Program-made: the position numbers and the translations under genes | Shown: positions 271-9,645 of the stretch, in pieces | Position numbering within the stretch: the first letter of the stretch is position 1 | Layout: each line of letters starts with the position of its first letter | NCBI GenBank assembly: GCA_021325135.1 | Contig: JAJPHT010000025.1 | Span: forward strand, 1-33,047 | Direction of reading: 5' to 3' | DNA length: 33,047 nucleotides | Origin: Pseudomonadota bacterium | GTDB lineage: Archaea > Thermoplasmatota > SW-10-69-26 > JACQPN01 > JAJPHT01 | The notes under the pieces: model-generated | Told to the model about the DNA's origin: nothing | Seen by the model: the letters and a program-made list of their open reading frames with translations, nothing else | Database searches by the model: none

Positions 271-3200
271 TCACGCCTTGCGCTTCAGGCGCGGGTAGAC
301 GGCCTGGCCCACGACCACGACGCCCAGGAAGATCGTCGTCCAGAGGAAGACGCTGGGGGGCGAGGGCTCGGAGAGCGTGATCGTGCGCGTGCTGAAGTGC
401 GCGAGCGTCACGATGGCCTGGAGGCCGGCCTGGCCCTCGGTCGTGATGAGGTAGTACTTGTCCGCGTTGGGCGTCAGCGCGTCCTGGTAGCTCTTGGCCT
501 GGCTGAGCTCGTGGCCGTCCACCATGAGCTTCGCGTTGCCCTGGATGAGGCTGCTCACGGTGTTGCGGTCCAGGCTGAGGATCACCGACTTGCCGGTGTG
601 CGTGGCGGAGTCCACCACGACCTGCACCTGGTCCGTCGTCGCGACCTGCGTCACCGCGAGCACGTCCGCGTAGTAGTTCACGGCCGCGCTGGTGGTGGCG
701 TGGGTGGTCGCGCTCGTGGAGACGATGACCTGGCCGAGGAGCTTGCCGGAGGCGATGGCCTGCGCCTGCGCCTCCTTCTGCGCCTCGTTGAGCTCGCTCT
801 CGAAGCCGCTGAACGCCTTGAACATCACCGTGGCGCCCGCGTGGAGGGAGGCGTCCACCTGGCCGCCCGCGTCCCCCGCGCCGCTGAGGGCGCCATCGCC
901 GATGGCGACGAGCGCGCCCGAGAAGTCGGGCGCGCTGAGCATGACGACCTGCGGGCTCACCTGCGTGGGCTGCACGTTGCTGGCGAGGTCGAAGACGACG
1001 TTGGTGTCCGCCGCGGCGGTGGCCTTGAGGACGGCGCCGGAGACGTCGTAGGCCTCCAGGCTCCCCTCGGGGCCGACCCACTTGATGCTGCTGGGGCTGC
1101 TGCCCGAGCCGCCCGAGAAGGCGGTGTCGCCCAGGCGCACGGCGTCGAAGACCTTCGTCGTCGTGCCCGCGGCCGCGTCGGCGGTGGCCTTCGCGGCGAC
1201 GGTGTAGTCCAGGACGAGGCCCGCCTCGGGCTTCGCGACGAGGCTCACGATCCGGCCGGACTCCGCGCCGCCGTAGCCGGGCGCGAACTGCCCGAAGACG
1301 TCCAGCGCGGCGGCCTCGCGGCTCGCCTGGTCGAGGTTGCTCTTGGCGACGATGCTGGCCGCCTCGCCCGCGGCGAGGTCGGGCACCAGCACGATGACCT
1401 GCGTGAGGCCCTGGCTCGTGCCGACCCAGTACTCGGCCTGGCCGCCCGCGTTGGCGGCGGCGTCGGCGAGGAGGGAGGCCGCGCTGTCCACCGCGACGGC
1501 CGCCTTGCCGTTCACGCTGACCGCGACGTCCGCGGCGCTGCGCGCGGCGAGGGTCGCCTGGTCCGCGACGAGGGCGAAGGCGGTGGCCTTGGCGCTGGCG
1601 GCCGCGCTGTTCACGGCGTCCAGGGTGACGACGCCGCGGTGCGTGGCCTGCGCGCCCTGGCGCACGGCCATGTGGATGTCCTTGTGGTAGTCGACCTTGG
1701 CGGAGGCGATGGCGTTGGCCACGAAGCCGACGCTGGCCTCGCTGGCGAGCGCGCCGTTGGCGATGGCCTTCGCGATCAGCTCCGCGCTGGCCTTGGCCTG
1801 CGCCTCGACGGTGCTGCGGAAGACGAGCTTCTCGCCCTGCGCGACGTGGGCCTTGACCTCCTGCGTCTTGCTGAGGTCGAACTGGCTGTGCTCGGCCGCG
1901 GTGCCGTCCACCTTGGTGAGCATCACGTAGCCGACCTTGCCCGCGGGGCCGTCAAGCTCCACGACGTTCGCGGCGTCCGCGAGGGCGTGGGCGCTGATCT
2001 CGTTGTTGAGGTGGAAGTCCTCGGTGGTGGCGACGTCCGCCGTGGTCTCGATGGCGCCGTAGACCGAGTCCGTGAAGGTGGTCGTGGCGGCGACCTGGCC
2101 CGCGACGGTGGTCGTCATCTGGACGGCCGCGCCCGCGGTGGCGGAGGCGCTGTTCTGCGCGTAGGCGCTGGTCTCCAGCTGCGCCTTGGAGGTGAACTGC
2201 GCGGCGGCGTCGGCGGCGATGTCGCCCGCCACCTCTATCTTGGTGAAGATCTCCTCCGCGCTGCGCACGTCGGTGAAGTGGCGCACGCTGGTGTCGCCCT
2301 TCGCCTCGCTGGCGAAGAACTCGCTGAAGGAGCCGATGACCTGGCCCGAGCCCGAGGCGCTGGTCTCCAGGTCGCCCAGGAGCGAGAAGCCGCCCTGGAT
2401 CTGCTCGGTCAAGGCGCTCGCGGCGTCAAGCTCCGCCAGCGTGCTGGCGGCGGCCTGGCCCGAGGCGAGCGCGGCGATGGTCACCTGCGTCGCGGCGTTG
2501 AGCTTGGCCGCGACGTTGGTCACGACGAGGACGCGGCCGTCCACGGCCCACGCCCAGTAGGAGTCCGCGTGCGTCGCGACGTCCGCGGCGGCGGCCACGC
2601 GCTGCGCGAGGGCGCCATCCACGTACACGGCAACCTGGTCCGCGGTCTGCGCGGGGACGTCCACGTAGTCGAGGTCGTAGGCAAGGACCTCGGCGCGCGC
2701 GCACGCCTGGCCGGACGCGCTGCCCGAAGCGCTTCCGGCGGCGTTGGGCGCGCTGCCCGCGAGGCCGCCCGCCGAGTCCGCCGCCGCGCACGCGCTGGCG
2801 GTCGCGGTGGTCTTCAGCATGGTCGTGACGCGGGTGGACTCCTTGACCTCGGTGCGCGCCGACGCGAAGGCGTGGTACTGCGCCTGCGCGATGAGCTGCG
2901 CGCCGCTGGAGAACTCGGTGGTGGCCTCGCCCACGAGCTTGCCCGAGGCCATGAGGCTCACGACCGCGGAGTTGTAGGCCGAGGCGCCCTGGTCGAGGGC
3001 GGCGCCCAGGCGGCTCGCGTAGGAGGCGTCCGCGCGGAAGACCAGCTCGGCGCCCTGCTTGAGGGTCGCCTGGGCCTTGTGCTGGCCCTGGAGCGCGAGG
3101 CCGGAGCCGTCCTTGGCGGTGTCGTTCTGGTCCGCGCGCAGGAGCACGATGGCGCCCTGCACGCCGTTGGCGCCCTCGCCCGCGACGCGCCACACGTTGG

Positions 3201-3705
3201 AGGCGTCCGCGTCGGGGGTGATGAGCACGCCATCGGGCGTGTGGAAGGTGACGATCTGGTCGTGGGAGCCGGTCGCCGTCATGGTGAGCAGGCTGTTCAC
3301 GTTGTCCGTGAGCGTGACCAGGAGGTCGCTGCCCTGCATGGCGAGGGACGAGGTGCCCACGCCCTGGAGCTGGCTCGTGGGCTGGAAGCCCTGGATGTCG
3401 ATGGCGCTGAAGACGTCCTTCGCGCCAGAACCATCGGGGCTCGCGACCGCGAACTGCTGGAGGACGCCCTGGCCGTTGGCGGCCGCGGAGCCCTCCGCGA
3501 GGAGGCTCGACACGAGGGAGCCCTGGGCCATGCCCTGGCCAGCGCCCGCGGGCGTCACGTCGAAGGTGCCCACGGACCGGCCGGCTCCTCCCCCGAGGCC
3601 GGGGGCGTGGGGCGCCGCCTGCACGAGGGGCGCCCCCAGCGGGGCGACGAGGGTGGCAAGGGTCAGCAGGGTCAGGATGCGAACGTGGCGGGCTTTGGCG
3701 TCCAT
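271..3705 (-). CDS. Large Ala-rich secreted, C-terminally membrane-anchored surface protein with three tandem ~350-400 aa repeats (S-layer/adhesin-like)
   Basis: ATG at 3705 with GGAGG upstream. Signal peptide MDAKARHVRILTLLTLATLVAPLGAPLVQA. Three internal repeats (GAELVFRA/GEKLVFRS/GATVMFKA; VYVDG..DSYW/VSVNG..AEYW/LMVDG..DKYY). C-terminal TM plus basic tail (FLWTTIFLGVVVVGQAVYPRLKRKA). Confidence 0.85.
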   Translation of the reverse strand: MDAKARHVRILTLLTLATLVAPLGAPLVQAAPHAPGLGGGAGRSVGTFDVTPAGAGQGMAQGSLVSSLLAEGSAAANGQGVLQQFAVASPDGSGAKDVFSAIDIQGFQPTSQLQGVGTSSLAMQGSDLLVTLTDNVNSLLTMTATGSHDQIVTFHTPDGVLITPDADASNVWRVAGEGANGVQGAIVLLRADQNDTAKDGSGLALQGQHKAQATLKQGAELVFRADASYASRLGAALDQGASAYNSAVVSLMASGKLVGEATTEFSSGAQLIAQAQYHAFASARTEVKESTRVTTMLKTTATASACAAADSAGGLAGSAPNAAGSASGSASGQACARAEVLAYDLDYVDVPAQTADQVAVYVDGALAQRVAAAADVATHADSYWAWAVDGRVLVVTNVAAKLNAATQVTIAALASGQAAASTLAELDAASALTEQIQGGFSLLGDLETSASGSGQVIGSFSEFFASEAKGDTSVRHFTDVRSAEEIFTKIEVAGDIAADAAAQFTSKAQLETSAYAQNSASATAGAAVQMTTTVAGQVAATTTFTDSVYGAIETTADVATTEDFHLNNEISAHALADAANVVELDGPAGKVGYVMLTKVDGTAAEHSQFDLSKTQEVKAHVAQGEKLVFRSTVEAQAKASAELIAKAIANGALASEASVGFVANAIASAKVDYHKDIHMAVRQGAQATHRGVVTLDAVNSAAASAKATAFALVADQATLAARSAADVAVSVNGKAAVAVDSAASLLADAAANAGGQAEYWVGTSQGLTQVIVLVPDLAAGEAASIVAKSNLDQASREAAALDVFGQFAPGYGGAESGRIVSLVAKPEAGLVLDYTVAAKATADAAAGTTTKVFDAVRLGDTAFSGGSGSSPSSIKWVGPEGSLEAYDVSGAVLKATAAADTNVVFDLASNVQPTQVSPQVVMLSAPDFSGALVAIGDGALSGAGDAGGQVDASLHAGATVMFKAFSGFESELNEAQKEAQAQAIASGKLLGQVIVSTSATTHATTSAAVNYYADVLAVTQVATTDQVQVVVDSATHTGKSVILSLDRNTVSSLIQGNAKLMVDGHELSQAKSYQDALTPNADKYYLITTEGQAGLQAIVTLAHFSTRTITLSEPSPPSVFLWTTIFLGVVVVGQAVYPRLKRKA

Positions 3706-3889
3706 GGGGTTCCTCCCCGCTCCCCCTCGGGTCGCCCGGGTCTCATCCCGGTCGCGGATTCGGGCCTCGGGGACTCCGGCCAACCGGCCGACGGGCCCTT
3801 CCCCCTGACGGGTTTGGGAAAGCGGTCAAGGCTCGCACGGCAACGCTTATCGCCCCCCTCGGGCTCGGTCTCGTCGGGGAAGCTTCAGC

Positions 3890-4924
3890 ATGAGCCTTAG
3901 ATTCGCCTGTCTCTTTCTTGTCCTCGCCGTCTTCGCGGCGGGCTGCACGTCGACCGAGCCCGCCACCACGAAGCCCACCGAGGCGACCGCCCAAGCCGCA
4001 GGCGGGGGGGAGATCACGCAGGCCTCCGTGTCCAACGGCAACGGCCAGGGCGGCGGCCAGGTGCGCGACGTCGCGCCCACCCTGCCCGCCTTCGCCATCG
4101 GCACCGCCAGCGTCGACAACAGCGGCGGCAACAACCTCACCTTCACCGGCACCGCCTCGGACGCCAACGGCGAGCAGGACCTCCAGTTCCTCTACGTCAA
4201 GGGCACGACCTACAGCGCGGCGTCCGGCTTCCAGTTCCTCGGCACCAACCACACCATCACCTCCGCGGAGCGCAACCAGACCTCGGAGCCCGCGTCCTTC
4301 GCGTCCGACGGCTACAAGGTGTGGGACTGCAACGGCCGCGACGGCGTCCTCTGCTGGAAGTACAACCTTCCCGTGGCCCAGTTCGCCCAGGCCGGCACGT
4401 ACACCTTCAACGCGACGACGGGCAAGGCGTCCTCCTTCGCCTCCTCGCTGGTCTCGCAGATGCTCACGGGCACCGTGACCTCCTTCAGCCAGATCGACTT
4501 CTCGCCCTACCCCGTGGACTCCACGGGCGCGGTGCAGACGGGCGCCAACTGGGGCTCCTGGACGGCCAACCCCGGCGACGCCAACGTCACCGCGGGCAAC
4601 TACCTGAAGCTCACCAACAACGGCGACGTGGCCGGCGCCCGCGTGCAGATCAGCTTCTCGGGCACCGCCTTCGTGGGCACCACCGACTCCAGCTACACCG
4701 TGCCCTTCGCCAGCAACGTCCAGTTCGCCTCGTGCGACGCGGCGGCCGGCACGGCCCCCAGCGCGTGCACGTTCAGCGCGTGGAGCGCCCCCAACGCGGG
4801 CGCGGTCACGGTGCAGTTCGCGGGCAAGGGGCACGTCCTCTACGTGCAGTACCGCGTCGTCAGCCTGCCCAGCCCGCTCATGGCGCAGAGCTACGGCGCG
4901 ACCTTCACCGCGACCGAGCTGTGA
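3890..4924 (+). CDS. Lipoprotein, paralog 1 of an uncharacterised two-domain beta-rich surface family
   Basis: Lipobox-like LAVFAAGC; Thr/Ser/Asn-rich; shares EPASF.DG.KVW, WG.W.A.PG...NY.K..N.G and QF..KG...Y..YR...P..L..Q.YGA motifs with the downstream genes. Confidence 0.85.
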   Translation: MSLRFACLFLVLAVFAAGCTSTEPATTKPTEATAQAAGGGEITQASVSNGNGQGGGQVRDVAPTLPAFAIGTASVDNSGGNNLTFTGTASDANGEQDLQFLYVKGTTYSAASGFQFLGTNHTITSAERNQTSEPASFASDGYKVWDCNGRDGVLCWKYNLPVAQFAQAGTYTFNATTGKASSFASSLVSQMLTGTVTSFSQIDFSPYPVDSTGAVQTGANWGSWTANPGDANVTAGNYLKLTNNGDVAGARVQISFSGTAFVGTTDSSYTVPFASNVQFASCDAAAGTAPSACTFSAWSAPNAGAVTVQFAGKGHVLYVQYRVVSLPSPLMAQSYGATFTATEL

Positions 4925-4934
4925 GGTGCCCGTG

Positions 4935-5867
4935 ATGCGCGCCGCCCTTGGCCTCCTGGTCCTGGCGCTCCTTGCGCCCCTCGCCGCCGCGTCGAGCTTC
5001 ACGCTCCTCGCGGACCGGCACGCGGACCAGGACGCCTCGGGCGGCGTGACCGTGTTCACCATGCCGGTGCAGGTGAACCAGGGCGGCTTCGTGTACGCCA
5101 AGGTCCTCGCCACCGAGGGCAACGCGGTCAACGACGGCTATCACGCCAACGGCAGCGTCGAGGCCCACACGGGCTGGCGCGTCGCGTTCGCGTGGATCTA
5201 CGCCAACGGCACGCGGCAGGAGCTGGGCGAGTTCGTGGACGGAACGCCCAGCGCGCTGGCCGCCGTCTCGCCCGAGTCGGACCAGCTCGTCATGACCGTG
5301 CGCTGGCCCTCCGACGCGCAGACCGTGGGCGGCCCCGCGCAGCAGGTGTGGGTCGCCCTCGCGTACCGGCAGGCCCCCTCGGGCACGGACCCGGGCGCGA
5401 CCTCCGGCGTGCAGATGGACGAGGCGCGCGCCATCTCGCTGACGCTCCACTTCGGGCCCGGCGTCGCCATGGAGCCCTCGGGGACGACCGCGAGCCCCAC
5501 GCCGGGCCCCTCGCCCACGCCCCCCTCCACGGTGCCCTCCGCGCCCCCGGCGACGCCCACCGCCGCGACGCCGCAGGCCTCCCCCGGCGGGGGCGGCGAG
5601 CCCGTCGTCCCCTCCGTGGGGCCCATCGAGTCCTCCGCGCCCGCGACGCGCATCGTGGTCGTGGCGCCGCCGCTCCCCTCGTGGTTCCTGGGCGCGGTCG
5701 TCTTCCTCGGCGTCGTCAGCGTCGTCAGCCTCTCCCTCCTGGCCGTGGGCGTCTGGCTCCTGGCGCGGCGCCGCCGCGAGGCGCCCGTCCTGCGCCGCGT
5801 GACGCGCATTCCCGTGCGCCTCCGCGAGGAGACGCCCGCCTCGCCTCCGGTCCGGGGGGAGCGCTGA
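4935..5867 (+). CDS. Secreted protein: one beta-rich domain, Pro/Thr stalk, C-terminal TM anchor
   Basis: GAGGTG SD overlapping the upstream stop, then ATG at 4935. Signal peptide MRAALGLLVLALLAPLAAA, PT-rich linker, TM followed by RRRR. Confidence 0.8.
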   Translation: MRAALGLLVLALLAPLAAASSFTLLADRHADQDASGGVTVFTMPVQVNQGGFVYAKVLATEGNAVNDGYHANGSVEAHTGWRVAFAWIYANGTRQELGEFVDGTPSALAAVSPESDQLVMTVRWPSDAQTVGGPAQQVWVALAYRQAPSGTDPGATSGVQMDEARAISLTLHFGPGVAMEPSGTTASPTPGPSPTPPSTVPSAPPATPTAATPQASPGGGGEPVVPSVGPIESSAPATRIVVVAPPLPSWFLGAVVFLGVVSVVSLSLLAVGVWLLARRRREAPVLRRVTRIPVRLREETPASPPVRGER

Positions 5868-7153
5868 CGCGCCCGGGGCCCCGCCTCGCCGCGTGGCTCC
5901 TGGTCGCGCTGCTCCTGGCCGGATGCACCTCCCCGGGCGGCACGCTGCGCCTGGCCAGCGACGACGAGAACGCCACGCCCACGCCTGAGGAGACCGCTCC
6001 GACCCCCTCCACGCCCGTCGACCTGCCCTACTCGGGCGTCGCGGGCGGCGAAGCCGCGGAGGCCCCCACGCCCGAGGCGCCGACGCCCACGGAGCCGACC
6101 CCCGAGGCGAGCCCGGAGCCGGCCATCGAGGCCTCCCCCGAACCCGTCGCGAACGCGACCCCCGCCGCCAACGCGACCCCCCCGGCCGACGAGGCGCCCC
6201 CGGTCAACGAGTCGACCTCCGCGAACGAGACCGCGCCCGCGAACCAGACCGAGGCGCCCCCCGCCAACGAGACGCCCCCCACGCCGACCCCGCCGACCCC
6301 CTCCACGCCCGTCCTGGCCACGCTGGCGTTCTCGGGCGTGAGCGCGGGCGCGCAGCGCATCGAGGCGGGCGGCGCCGGGGTCATCGTGCGCGGCCTCGTC
6401 CTGGCGCCCGATCCGGCGCATCTCGCCTCGGTGGGCGTCCGCGCGAGCCTCGCGGGCGCGCCGGACCTCGTCGCGCTGCACCTCGTCTCCAACGCGGACC
6501 GCAAGCGCCCCCAGGAGCCCGGCTCGTTCGACGCGGACGGCTGCCGCGCGTGGCGCGCGGGCGAAGGGAGCCTCGGCTTCGCGTGCCGGCTCGTCCCGCC
6601 CCGCGGCGCGCCCTCCGGGCGGTACGCGCTCGTCGCCCTCGCCAGCGACGACGCGGGAGGCTCCGCCGTCTCCGACGCGCTGCCGCTGGGCATCGCGCCG
6701 CTGCGCCTCGTGCAGGTGGCGGGCGCTCCCGTCGACGCGGACGGGAACGCGACGGGCGTCGCGTGGGGCGGCTGGGCCGCCCGGCCCGGCGCGCGCGGCG
6801 TGCCGGCGGCGAACTACGTCCGCATCGTGAACGCGGGCGACGACGACAACGCCACGGCCATCGTGGACTTCGGCACCGGCGGGTTCCGCGGCGCGCTGGA
6901 CCCGCGCTTCTCCATCCCCACCGTGGGCAACCTGGAGTTCGCCTGGTGGGAGGCCAAGGGCGCCAACGCGCAGGCCGAGAAGCCTCGCCACGGCCAGTTC
7001 ACCTGGCACGAGCCCACGGCCGGAGGCGCCTCCGAGCGTGTGCAGTTCACGTCCAAGGGCTCCGTCATCTTCCTCGTCTACCGCATCAAGGCCATGCCCG
7101 ACGTGCTGCCCGTGCAGGCCTACGGCGCGTCGTACGTGGTGACGGAGGGCTGA
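5864..7153 (+). CDS. Lipoprotein, paralog 2, with acidic Pro/Glu/Thr linker; probable CTG start
   Basis: LLVALLLAGC lipobox and clear homology to the 3890 gene. The only plausible start just before the signal is CTG at 5864, overlapping the upstream TGA (CTGA), with a G-rich SD-like sequence upstream. Confidence 0.8.
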   Translation: MTRPGPRLAAWLLVALLLAGCTSPGGTLRLASDDENATPTPEETAPTPSTPVDLPYSGVAGGEAAEAPTPEAPTPTEPTPEASPEPAIEASPEPVANATPAANATPPADEAPPVNESTSANETAPANQTEAPPANETPPTPTPPTPSTPVLATLAFSGVSAGAQRIEAGGAGVIVRGLVLAPDPAHLASVGVRASLAGAPDLVALHLVSNADRKRPQEPGSFDADGCRAWRAGEGSLGFACRLVPPRGAPSGRYALVALASDDAGGSAVSDALPLGIAPLRLVQVAGAPVDADGNATGVAWGGWAARPGARGVPAANYVRIVNAGDDDNATAIVDFGTGGFRGALDPRFSIPTVGNLEFAWWEAKGANAQAEKPRHGQFTWHEPTAGGASERVQFTSKGSVIFLVYRIKAMPDVLPVQAYGASYVVTEG

Positions 7154-7155
7154 GC

Positions 7156-9177
7156 GTGCGCCTCGCCGCGCTCCTCGTGGTGGGCACGATCCTGGCCGGA
7201 TGCAGCGCGACGCGCGAGCCCTCCGCGCCCGAGCTTCCCGCCCTCCTGGGCCGCGCGTCCGCGGGGGGCGGCGCCATCACCGACGCGCCCGGATATTTCG
7301 CCTCGTTCTCCTCCGACGCATCGCAGGGCGACGTCGGCGGCGCCACCGTCGTCACGGTGAGCGGCTCCATCCAGGACAACAACAGCGAGAGCGACGTCGC
7401 CTGGATCCGCGGCTGGCTCAACGGCAGCACGCCCCAGTCCGTCAACCACACCGTGACCTCGGCCGAGCGCGCCGCCCTCGCCGAGCCCGCGGCCTTCGGC
7501 GCGGACGGCTTCAAGGTCTGGACGGGCGCCAGCGACGTGGACGGCCTGCTCCTGTTCCGCTGGCGCGTGGCCATCCCCCTGGGCGCCGCGCCCGGCCTCT
7601 ACGCGCTCGCGGCCAGCGAGGGCAACCCGGGAGTCCCCGCGTGGTCCCCCGAGCGCCCCCTCACGCTCCAGAAGGCCAGCGAGGTCACCGTCGCCGCGCA
7701 GCCCGTCAACTGGACCGGCGCGGCGCAGAACGCCTCGTGGGGCGCGTGGAGCGCGTCCCCCGGCGCGGCCAACGTCACGTCCAGCAACTACCTCAAGCTC
7801 GTCAACACGGGGCAGCTTGCGCGGCCGCGCGTCGTCGTGGACTTCAACGAGCTCTCCTTCGCCGGCACGGTCGACCCCGCGTACACCGTGCCCATCAACG
7901 GGGCCGTCGACTTCGCCTGGTGGGAGGACACCAACCCCACGGGCAGCGCGCCCTCCCGCGGAACCTACAACTGGACGGCGAGCGCGGATGGCAGCGTCAC
8001 GCTCCAGTTCTCCGCCAAGGGCGACGTCGTCTACCTGACGTACCGCGTCCGCTCGCTCCCCGCCGTGCTGCGCGACCAGCCCTACGCCGCGACGTTCACC
8101 GTGACCGACGTGGGCGGCGACGACGGGGCGAGCGCGCAGCCCGACCTCGTCGTCGAGTCCGTGGGCACGCCCACGGGCGCCCTGCCGGGCAGCGTGGTCA
8201 CGTTCACTGCCACCATCCGCAACGTGGGCCTCGCCACCGCCCCCGCCGCGCTGATCCCCGTCCGGATGACGCTGGACGGGAGCGCATTCCTCACCGCGAC
8301 GTACAACGCGACCGGGCCCCTCGCGCCAGGCGCGCGCATCACCGTGACCAGCGCCCCGTGGAGCGCCACCAAGGGGAGCCACACCCTCAACGTCACCGTC
8401 GATCCCCTCAACGCCACGGCCGAGAGCGTGGAGTCCAACAACGCGCTCGCCGCGGGCTTCACCGTGGCCGCCGGGCCCGCGGACCCGGGCTTCCCCTACG
8501 AGGACGCGGCGTGCGACACGCAGTACGAGTCCGGCGTCGACGTCGCGATCTCCCTCTCCAACGTCCGCGACGGCACCTACGACGCGTCCAGCCGCTGCCT
8601 CGTGATCCCGCCCAGCGTAGGTGATATCAGCACGAACAAGGTGGTCAGCTACAAGTCCGCCGCGGGCGTCACGGTCCAGGTGAACGTCACCTCGACCGCC
8701 AACGCCCTCACCCTCGACGCGGGCGCCGGCTTCGTCCGGGCGCCAGGCGTCGCGCTGGCCAGCAAGGGGCTCCTCACGGTCAAGAGCACGGGCGCGGACG
8801 TCGACGTCTCGGGCGCCACCATGACCAGCAGCACGGACGCCGTGAGCGTCACCACCGCCGGGGGCGGGGCCCTCGACGCCACGGGCGCCCGCGTCAGCGC
8901 CGCCAAGGGCGTGACCCTCAAGGCGGCCGGAGCCCCCCTTGCGGCGCCCGGCCTCGCCGCGGCGGCGGGCCAAGGCATCGCCCTCACCTCGCGCGGAAGC
9001 CTGGACCTCCGCTTCGCCTACCTCAACGCGACCGCGAGCATCACGCTGGGCACGACCATCGCCGCGCAGCAGGTCCTCGTCGACGCGGCCGAGCTCCACG
9101 ACGTGGACGACCGCGCCGCCCTCACGCCCAGCGGCGACGTCGTGGTGGGCTCGCCGGCCTACGGCAGCGTGGGCTGA
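7156..9177 (+). CDS. Lipoprotein, paralog 3, with added CARDB-like domain and C-terminal repetitive beta-solenoid-like region
   Basis: GGAGG at 7144, GTG at 7156, LVVGTILAGC lipobox and the family module. PDLVV...VTVDP.N...ES.ESNN is the CARDB signature. The tail has xLxLxA-type periodicity. Confidence 0.85.
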   Translation: MRLAALLVVGTILAGCSATREPSAPELPALLGRASAGGGAITDAPGYFASFSSDASQGDVGGATVVTVSGSIQDNNSESDVAWIRGWLNGSTPQSVNHTVTSAERAALAEPAAFGADGFKVWTGASDVDGLLLFRWRVAIPLGAAPGLYALAASEGNPGVPAWSPERPLTLQKASEVTVAAQPVNWTGAAQNASWGAWSASPGAANVTSSNYLKLVNTGQLARPRVVVDFNELSFAGTVDPAYTVPINGAVDFAWWEDTNPTGSAPSRGTYNWTASADGSVTLQFSAKGDVVYLTYRVRSLPAVLRDQPYAATFTVTDVGGDDGASAQPDLVVESVGTPTGALPGSVVTFTATIRNVGLATAPAALIPVRMTLDGSAFLTATYNATGPLAPGARITVTSAPWSATKGSHTLNVTVDPLNATAESVESNNALAAGFTVAAGPADPGFPYEDAACDTQYESGVDVAISLSNVRDGTYDASSRCLVIPPSVGDISTNKVVSYKSAAGVTVQVNVTSTANALTLDAGAGFVRAPGVALASKGLLTVKSTGADVDVSGATMTSSTDAVSVTTAGGGALDATGARVSAAKGVTLKAAGAPLAAPGLAAAAGQGIALTSRGSLDLRFAYLNATASITLGTTIAAQQVLVDAAELHDVDDRAALTPSGDVVVGSPAYGSVG

Positions 9178-9246
9178 GCCAACCCGGCTGTGCGGACCTG
9201 GGGCGGGTCCGGAACCCTCTTATGCCCCAGGCTCGGAGCCTTCGTC

Positions 9247-9645
9247 GTGCTGAGGAACGCCCTGGTCGTGGACGACTCGCCCACGATCCGTCTCGCCCTG
9301 CGGAGCATGCTCCAGCGCGCGGGCATCCCCGAAGGGGGCATCGTGGACGCCGACACCGGAGAGATGGCGGTCCGCCTCTTCGGAGAGCGCAACCCCGACG
9401 TCGTCTTCCTGGACATCGAGATGCCGGGTCTCGACGGCGAGGCGGTCGCCACGGAGCTGCTCCGCGTGAGGCCCACCGCGAAGCTCATCCTCACCACGGG
9501 CCTGGAGCGCAACGATCCCCGCGTGAGGCGTCTCGTCTCGCTGGGCGCCTTCGACGTGGTGGAGAAGCCGCTGCGCCGCGAGCGGATCGAGGACGTGCTG
9601 CGGCTCCTGGACGAGAGCGAGCGCGAGGCGGGGCGCATCCGGTAG
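9247..9645 (+). CDS. Stand-alone response regulator receiver (CheY-like) protein
   Basis: LVVDDS, VFLDIEMPGLDG (phospho-Asp), LTT and KP motifs; no output domain. Start is approximate. Confidence 0.9.
   Translation: MLRNALVVDDSPTIRLALRSMLQRAGIPEGGIVDADTGEMAVRLFGERNPDVVFLDIEMPGLDGEAVATELLRVRPTAKLILTTGLERNDPRVRRLVSLGAFDVVEKPLRRERIEDVLRLLDESEREAGRIR

Follow-up and report, generated by a model that had tools for sequence, protein, structure and literature searches.

A probable donor-strand-exchange surface fibre cassette with a putative membrane-anchored chaperone in an uncultured Thermoplasmatota archaeon

What kind of surface structure is encoded by a compact run of four genes in an uncultured soil-type archaeon of the Thermoplasmatota, whose genome comprises 3.77 Mb with 72% GC? 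The genes, designated here A, B, C and D, occupy positions 3890 to 9177 of a 33,047-nucleotide stretch of contig JAJPHT010000025.1, the whole of which is called the window. Genes A, C and D encode lipoproteins built on a common module of two domains, D1 and D2, and gene B encodes a protein with a stalk and a membrane helix. These genes probably specify a surface fibre assembled by donor-strand exchange, in which the N-terminal strand of one subunit would enter a groove in its neighbour, together with a membrane-anchored chaperone.

The shared module and its predicted interface

The initial annotation, made from the sequence alone, had described an operon of three paralogous lipoproteins and a stalked membrane protein; its coordinates, gaps and overlap proved right (a 10-nucleotide gap between A and B, a 4-nucleotide overlap, CTGA, between B and C, and a 2-nucleotide gap between C and D), the lipoboxes of A, C and D are present and the motifs that it quoted align. 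The three lipoproteins are paralogues according to BLASTP, with E values of 1e-44 (A-D), 3e-27 (A-C) and 7e-36 (C-D) and 32-35% identity, and they cluster together in a tree of the module (support 98/93), from which it follows that they arose by duplication within this lineage. Lipidation of the three subunits is expected at Cys19 (A), Cys21 (C) and Cys16 (D), in lipoboxes that their orthologues keep, whereas gene B is devoid of a lipobox and carries an ordinary signal peptide instead. The G+C content at third codon positions is 0.97-0.98 in all four frames, and D1, D2 and B occur nowhere else in the host genome.

The module has no match in Pfam, NCBIfam or PDB sequences, no solute-binding or enzyme family matches it, and a characterized monomeric family, which was also looked for, was not found. 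The 136 representatives gathered by a profile search fall into four layouts, consisting of (i) a signal, a G-G-G-x-V-x-N/D strand, D1 and D2, (ii) large variable proteins (Calx-beta, FN3) with D2 at their end, (iii) small lipoproteins reduced to D2 (37 D2-only proteins were counted), and (iv) a signal, the strand, D1 and a membrane helix in place of D2 (five donor-D1 proteins without D2, the helix end being seen in four). The donor motif occurs in 65 of the 68 proteins in which D1 comes next after the signal region versus 2/12 of those with an internal D1, the former count being somewhat inflated by alignment starts that were set at the motif, and D2 lies at most 10 residues from the C-terminus in 106 of 112 proteins. 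Within the donor strand, G55 is conserved at 92%, G56 at 95% and V58 at 83%. In the non-lipoprotein members, i.e., the many homologues with a plain signal peptide, the strand begins a few residues past the likely cleavage site, and two loci (L051 and L052) possess one gene per role, namely a shaft, a large D2-terminal protein and a donor-helix anchor, in addition to B. Taken at the sequence level, these layouts read as the parts list of a strand-exchange pilus, with shaft, tip and base. The module is an unnamed pilin family with a layout of its own, made of a donor, an immunoglobulin (Ig) spacer and an acceptor.

Structure models agree with this arrangement. Residues 48-344 of A were modelled with a predicted local distance difference test score (pLDDT) of 95.8, and the first 16 of them (48-63) are confidently placed yet unpaired. 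D1 adopts a generic Ig/PKD fold (Z ~9) with no standout match, and searches with the whole model are dominated by the generic Ig matches of D1 (integrins, MSCRAMMs, CARDB/NEW3 proteins). For D2 alone (pLDDT 97.3), the best Foldseek matches are strand-exchange pilins, including CfaB (E 5e-4), the cannula 9h8b (E 1.3e-3), CanA, AbpA (E 5e-3), FimA, Hyper2 and PapG. The three-copy model of A scored 0.49 against 0.00 for the best control, a mark reached by 20/30 solved pairs and 1/23 single chains, counts which hold only roughly for a three-copy job; the pLDDT of the partners is at least 84. In the run that scored best, one copy contributes residues 48-61 and two D1 loops, which face residues 220-229 and 328-343 in D2 of the next copy, and the contact pairs predict a donor strand antiparallel to the last strand of the acceptor and parallel to strand 223-228, as has been reported for the Elr and chaperone-usher pili. 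Both faces of this interface comprise the residues best conserved in the family, and a D1 loop (D91-N93-E95-D97) is located at the predicted subunit junction, where by analogy with the cannulae it may bind calcium. Mutual information between donor and groove is weak (mean Z 0.07 vs -0.07 at an effective depth of 54), the majority of the top pairs falling outside the interface, and was not used. The monomer and three-copy models, the D2 folds and the architecture rule support the original proposal of an undescribed surface filament whose subunits are joined head to tail by donor-strand complementation, with GGGQVRDV as the donor segment.

The cassette also behaves as a unit. The order A-B-C-D is kept in L001, L018 and L020, while L059, L063 and L065 have a shorter cassette of A and B, and A is the first cassette gene in all loci. 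At the corresponding site of the congener G010, the flanking genes adjoin each other with no cassette between them, which indicates that it was gained or lost as a whole. Among 401 sampled genomes of the phylum, strong matches to the module (E <1e-15) occur in 13 and strong matches to B (E <1e-10) in 12, all of them within the 13; the module-bearing genome without a B match is 73% complete.

Members of the B family consist of a signal peptide, one domain, a stalk and a helix. They have no Pfam or PDB sequence match and show no similarity to D2 in a profile comparison, and the shaft gene is the neighbour of B in all examined loci that have context, L064 being a possible exception. A motif S-G-x-x-M/L/P-D, which resembles the donor strand, occurs in the loop before the last strand in 14 of 19 members. 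The initial annotation took B for the anchor. Since a separate donor-plus-helix anchor gene stands beside B in L051 and L052, B is better read as a probable membrane-anchored chaperone.

Some further observations concern the module and B. Stand-alone small D2-only proteins, mostly lipobox-bearing, are found in L017 (8335-9000, genome G009, away from the cassette) and as P0102-P0105, P0117 and P0121, and may represent alternative nucleators. In L061 (3-1475) D2 is followed by a membrane helix, so that the acceptor itself is anchored, as in C but through a helix. A distant relative of D1 is an Ig domain that contains a D-x-N/D-G-x-x-D loop and occurs in large surface proteins of many Thermoplasmatota (L041, L043, L044, L034-L036). 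Finally, a motif is common to the membrane-helix starts at 316-357 (-) and 5676-5717 (+) of the window; B orthologues keep only a Pro plus a nearby Trp or Tyr, and most of this likeness is probably due to chance.

Proposed assembly, rival readings and the fate of the lipid tethers

The conservation, the folds, the architecture rule and the modelled interface are computed, and the assembly scheme extends from them to a chaperone role for B, the lipidation, the order of assembly and the junction calcium. Each exported subunit would carry a lipobox and stay attached to the outer face of the membrane. D2, as an incomplete pilin-type Ig fold, would expose an open groove, which B, tethered via its helix and stalk, would probably cover with its S-G-x-x-M-D loop. 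The N-terminal G-G-G-x-V-x-D strand of the next subunit would enter this groove antiparallel to the last strand, displacing B, and D1 would serve as a spacer packing on the previous D2. The shaft would consist of repeated A subunits, C, as an acceptor that cannot donate, would start the chain, and D, which can do both, would be built into the fibre and carry the CARDB domain and the variable tail as a probable adhesin. D had been proposed as a tip adhesin, but with donor and acceptor it makes no plain tip, and the acceptor-only end piece is C. Adhesion or a cell-surface matrix would be the likely job of such a fibre.

The same fibre could be built without any chaperone, like the archaeal bundling pili, cannulae and Tafi, with B as a membrane anchor or nucleator. 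This is unlikely, although all solved archaeal strand-donation filaments assemble in this way (PMC9245690; 10.1101/2024.12.30.630787; PMC12337348). The stalk and helix of B, its conserved loop that could permanently plug the last groove, the need of the two-gene A+B cassettes for a base, and the conserved acidic junction residues that could give calcium-driven assembly would all suit it. It is at odds with the donor-strand-plus-helix anchor found beside B in L051 and L052, and with PapD_N as the closest named fold of B. In addition, the motif of B is internal and stands just before the last strand, as in chaperone donor loops, whereas the anchors carry a true N-terminal donor. This position is established for the donor loop of PapD. 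The donor loop of ElrE comprises residues 141-152 (10.64898/2026.10.17.759780).

It is improbable that a small number of lipid-anchored subunits form a static complex for the display of adhesin domains and no long fibre. The lipobox is kept in every module protein of the window, the cassette is devoid of a protease, and a trimer model cannot show length; however, the modelled interface is homotypic and open-ended, many homologues have no lipid, their donor strand following shortly after a plain signal peptide, and the same static model proposed for the WxL clusters has been overturned (10.64898/2026.10.17.759780). Independent monomeric surface lipoproteins, acting as binding proteins or adhesins, or the subunits of a two-dimensional S-layer-like lattice are very improbable readings. 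Tandem Ig domains are indeed common in monomeric surface proteins, and the whole-model matches are integrins, MSCRAMMs and CARDB/NEW3 proteins, but these readings leave unexplained the conserved unpaired strand, the strictly C-terminal D2, the donor-only and acceptor-only forms and the association with B; no match to a solute-binding or enzyme family supports them, and the clean absence of the cassette in the congener is unlike a core wall protein.

Several points weigh against the chaperone-assisted fibre. One of the three-copy runs failed (0.51, 0.00 and 0.49, with contacts common to the runs as low as 0%), and the job lies outside the calibration on account of its three copies, its own alignment and the omission of residues 1-47. 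In the VIA-align search with D2, glycosidase N-terminal domains came out on top (Z 8.6, 7.8 and 7.3) and the pilins comprised Csu (Z 7.3, root-mean-square deviation 3.0, 114 aligned), PapG and Hyper2 (6.8), CupE (6.5), a cannula (6.4) and TasA (5.3), Z values below 8 being such as may reflect a common arrangement; the D2 matches are middling, and a pilin-type fold fits without any family being named. The closest named Atlas structure to B, PapD_N (template modelling score 0.54), was obtained with a model of low confidence (pLDDT 0.46), and B is single-domain whereas PapD, ElrE and PamC/D are two-domain. Cassette neighbours made up most of the training set of the B profile, and its independent evidence consists of the matches in G057 and G097 and the absence elsewhere. 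Finally, the cassette holds neither a protease gene nor a donor-only anchor.

For the chaperone-assisted fibre, the fate of the lipid tethers matters, since a lipid-anchored polymer can leave the membrane only if they are cut. The evidence leans slightly towards cutting at a conserved linker motif: the A-type linker varies from 22 to 46 residues, yet the Val of the motif (Val47 in A) stands exactly 11 residues before the donor Val (Val58 in A) in 19 of 24 lipobox-type shafts, and the gene of a membrane-anchored S8 protease lies adjacent in three related loci (L016, L063, L065). That the tethers are kept falls just short of being probable. The cassette has no protease and the host genome holds only a class-wide distant S8 paralogue, the linker motif could be a second docking strand, the linker of D is devoid of the A-type motif, and C, the acceptor-only end, has a lipid and a long stalk of its own, which is odd for a free tip. 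The close S8 subfamily (50-62%) occurs only in the module-bearing G004, G008 and G013, whereas a distant paralogue exists in every genome of the class; in G008 the protease adjoins a large upstream-type gene and not the cassette, and its link to the cassette is a lead only. Members of this membrane-anchored subfamily are located in L063 (5209-6873), L065 (520-2286), L016 (7282-8763), L010 (1-552) and L068 (1904-3742), beside the cassette, a donor-bearing gene or a large Ala-rich gene. Rather unlikely, though worth stating, is a polymer whose tethers are never cut and which would lie along the membrane, with a lipid staple per subunit, the stalked C at one end, B at the other and the adhesin domains of D pointing outward. 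If true, this would be a membrane-hugging protein cable, and no description of such a surface structure was found.

Relation to known strand-exchange systems

For the Elr/WxL pilus (ElrA-E of Enterococcus faecalis), a system reported to be restricted to Bacillota, a strand-exchange logic of the same kind has been demonstrated (10.64898/2026.10.17.759780). This pilus shares with the cassette and its family an N-terminal donor strand antiparallel to the last strand of the acceptor (for the cassette, a prediction of the trimer model), a small-G-x-V donor pattern, large variable adhesins that end in the acceptor domain, rare module-first adhesins built into the fibre like D, a donor-only terminator, a membrane-anchored chaperone beside the pilin (B would be that of the cassette) and minimal chaperone-plus-pilin operons. 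The cassette differs by the Ig spacer D1 between donor and acceptor, by a donor ending in N/D and not F, and by its lipoprotein precursors. The WxL domain (PF13731) has no match in the genome, the control in Lactococcus being positive, nor in any member of the module alignment; the DUF916/DUF3324 chaperone (PF06030) matches neither the genome nor the B family, although a distant structural relation may exist. The cassette contains no gene for an LPxTG terminator or sortase, and the anchors of its relatives end in a membrane helix.

The Pam pilus, reported as exclusive to bacteria of the Candidate Phyla Radiation (CPR), has a modelled assembly (10.64898/2026.03.03.709456). Like the cassette family, it has pilins of two domains, the C-terminal one being a truncated Ig acceptor, together with an acceptor-only tip and a donor-plus-helix base; its chaperones are membrane-anchored and act without an usher, as B may do. 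Its donor, however, is the linker between the N- and C-terminal domains, whereas that of the cassette precedes D1, and its chaperones are two-domain and no lipoproteins are mentioned for it, in contrast to the one-domain B and the lipoprotein pilins of the cassette. The fold matches listed include no Pam entry, Pam may be outside the structure library, and the Atlas gives unnamed CPR clusters.

Type V pili (FimA/Mfa1 of Bacteroidia), to which the cassette had initially been likened, also possess two-domain β-sandwich pilins that are exported as lipoproteins and could be freed from the membrane only by a protease. The parallel fails on the donor strand, which is C-terminal in type V pili (PMC13655056), whereas the cassette donor is N-terminal and its C-terminal strand is predicted to line the acceptor groove; type V pili need no chaperone and have no sequence match to the cassette. 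As regards the protease-triggered exchange of type V pili, the cassette shows the fixed linker motif of A, and an S8 protease gene is adjacent in the three related loci but not here. The archaeal AbpA, threads, CanA/Hyper2 and Tafi (PMC9245690, 10.1101/2024.12.30.630787, PMC12337348, PMC11821415) and the bacterial TasA share an N-terminal donor strand and a possible interface calcium with the cassette, and the likeness of their jelly-roll fold to D2 is middling (Z 5.3-6.8), tied with the chaperone-usher pilins, but their subunits are single-domain and chaperone-free. No Pfam, NCBIfam or PDB sequence match relates the cassette to the TasA-like family. Tafi needs a dedicated signal peptidase (PMC9245690, 10.1101/2024.12.30.630787, PMC12337348, PMC11821415), and no SipW/TafD-type signal peptidase, a feature of the TasA and Tafi operons only, occurs in the cassette, the single archaeal signal peptidase match of the genome being located on another contig. 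The chaperone-usher pili (CfaB, Csu, Fim, Pap) resemble the cassette in the pilin fold of D2, in the donor geometry and, from a low-confidence model, in the PapD-like shape of B, and differ by the lack of D1 and the presence of an usher and an outer membrane. The absence of chaperone-usher motifs noted at the outset holds at the sequence level (no genome match to PapD_N, PF00345, and no usher-sized gene in the cassette), although D2 is shaped like those pilins.

Solved archaeal strand-donation filaments are single-domain and chaperone-free, and the chaperone-equipped Elr/WxL and Pam systems have been reported only in Bacillota and CPR. The literature searched, in which subscription journals were mostly outside coverage, describes no such system in Thermoplasmatota and no chaperone-assisted strand-exchange fibre in archaea. 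In this respect, the cassette points to the same chaperone-type assembly logic in Thermoplasmatota. Its lipoprotein form, new with respect to Elr/WxL and Pam, would join a feature of type V pili to a chaperone-type chemistry, and the two-gene minimal form makes the system testable by simple co-expression.

Features of the cassette and its surroundings

Table 1. Genes and sequence features of the cassette (positions refer to the window)
Feature	Position	Strand	Description
Gene A	3890..4924	+	344-residue lipoprotein: lipobox, 35-residue linker, donor strand, D1, D2; probable major shaft subunit
A lipobox Cys19	3944..3946	+	Kept in close relatives
A linker motif, residues 42-47	4013..4030	+	Conserved in lipoprotein-type shafts; candidate cleavage site or second docking strand
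A donor strand, residues 54-61	4049..4072	+	Consensus G-G-G-x-V-x-N/D; unpaired in monomer model, inserted in neighbour's D2 in trimer model
A D1	4073..4480	+	Ig/PKD-like spacer; conserved D-x-N-G-E-x-D loop at predicted subunit junction, possible calcium site
A D2	4481..4921	+	Pilin-like acceptor domain; ends at C-terminus
Gene B	4935..5867	+	310 residues: signal peptide, conserved domain 4992-5468, Pro/Thr stalk 5469-5669, C-terminal membrane helix ~5685-5768; probable membrane-anchored chaperone
B S-G-x-x-M-D loop	5403..5420	+	Before last strand, donor-strand-like; candidate chaperone donor
Gene C	5864..7153	+	429-residue lipoprotein, non-canonical start; 129-residue glycosylatable stalk 5927-6313, degenerate D1 6329-6685, D2 6710-7147; acceptor-only end piece
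Gene D	7156..9177	+	673-residue lipoprotein: donor strand 7264-7287, D1, D2 7672-8109, CARDB 8137-8451, variable tail 8479-9174; probable in-line adhesin subunit

The claim that all three lipoproteins carry the same module holds for D1 and D2, with the reservation that the D1 of C is degenerate and that C is devoid of the N-terminal GGG-x-V strand present in A and D. The stalk described as long and acidic does exist in C, but consists of 25% Pro, 18% Ala, 16% Thr and 15% acidic residues, and comprises seven N-glycosylation sequons. In D, the CARDB domain is confirmed (E 1.8e-15), whereas the β-solenoid-like nature of the tail is not, a haemagglutinin-repeat match being sub-threshold (E 0.12) and the tail being absent from the D orthologue in L001. 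No ATG, GTG or TTG precedes the lipobox of C, whose start must be CTG 5864 or ACG 5867, behind GGAG; the same non-canonical start occurs in L021 (~5245) and probably L020 (~11982), whereas L001 and L018 use GTG and ATG. Such a start may keep the C subunit scarce.

Upstream of A, the segment 3850-3889 contains a TATA-like element some 35-40 bases 5' of the gene and a conserved purine-rich leader common to L001 and L020; a bacterial promoter scan of the sequence was uninformative. The divergent gene at 271-3783 (-) encodes a large Ala-rich secreted protein (1170 residues) with internal repeats, a C-terminal membrane helix and no Pfam family. Its presence in genomes that do not possess the cassette led to its rejection as a part of the system. 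It is a candidate major surface protein and is present, often as multiple copies, in 13 of 21 genomes of the class. Directly after D, a stand-alone response-regulator receiver gene is located at 9241-9645 (+); no such gene occupies this place in L001, L018 or L020.

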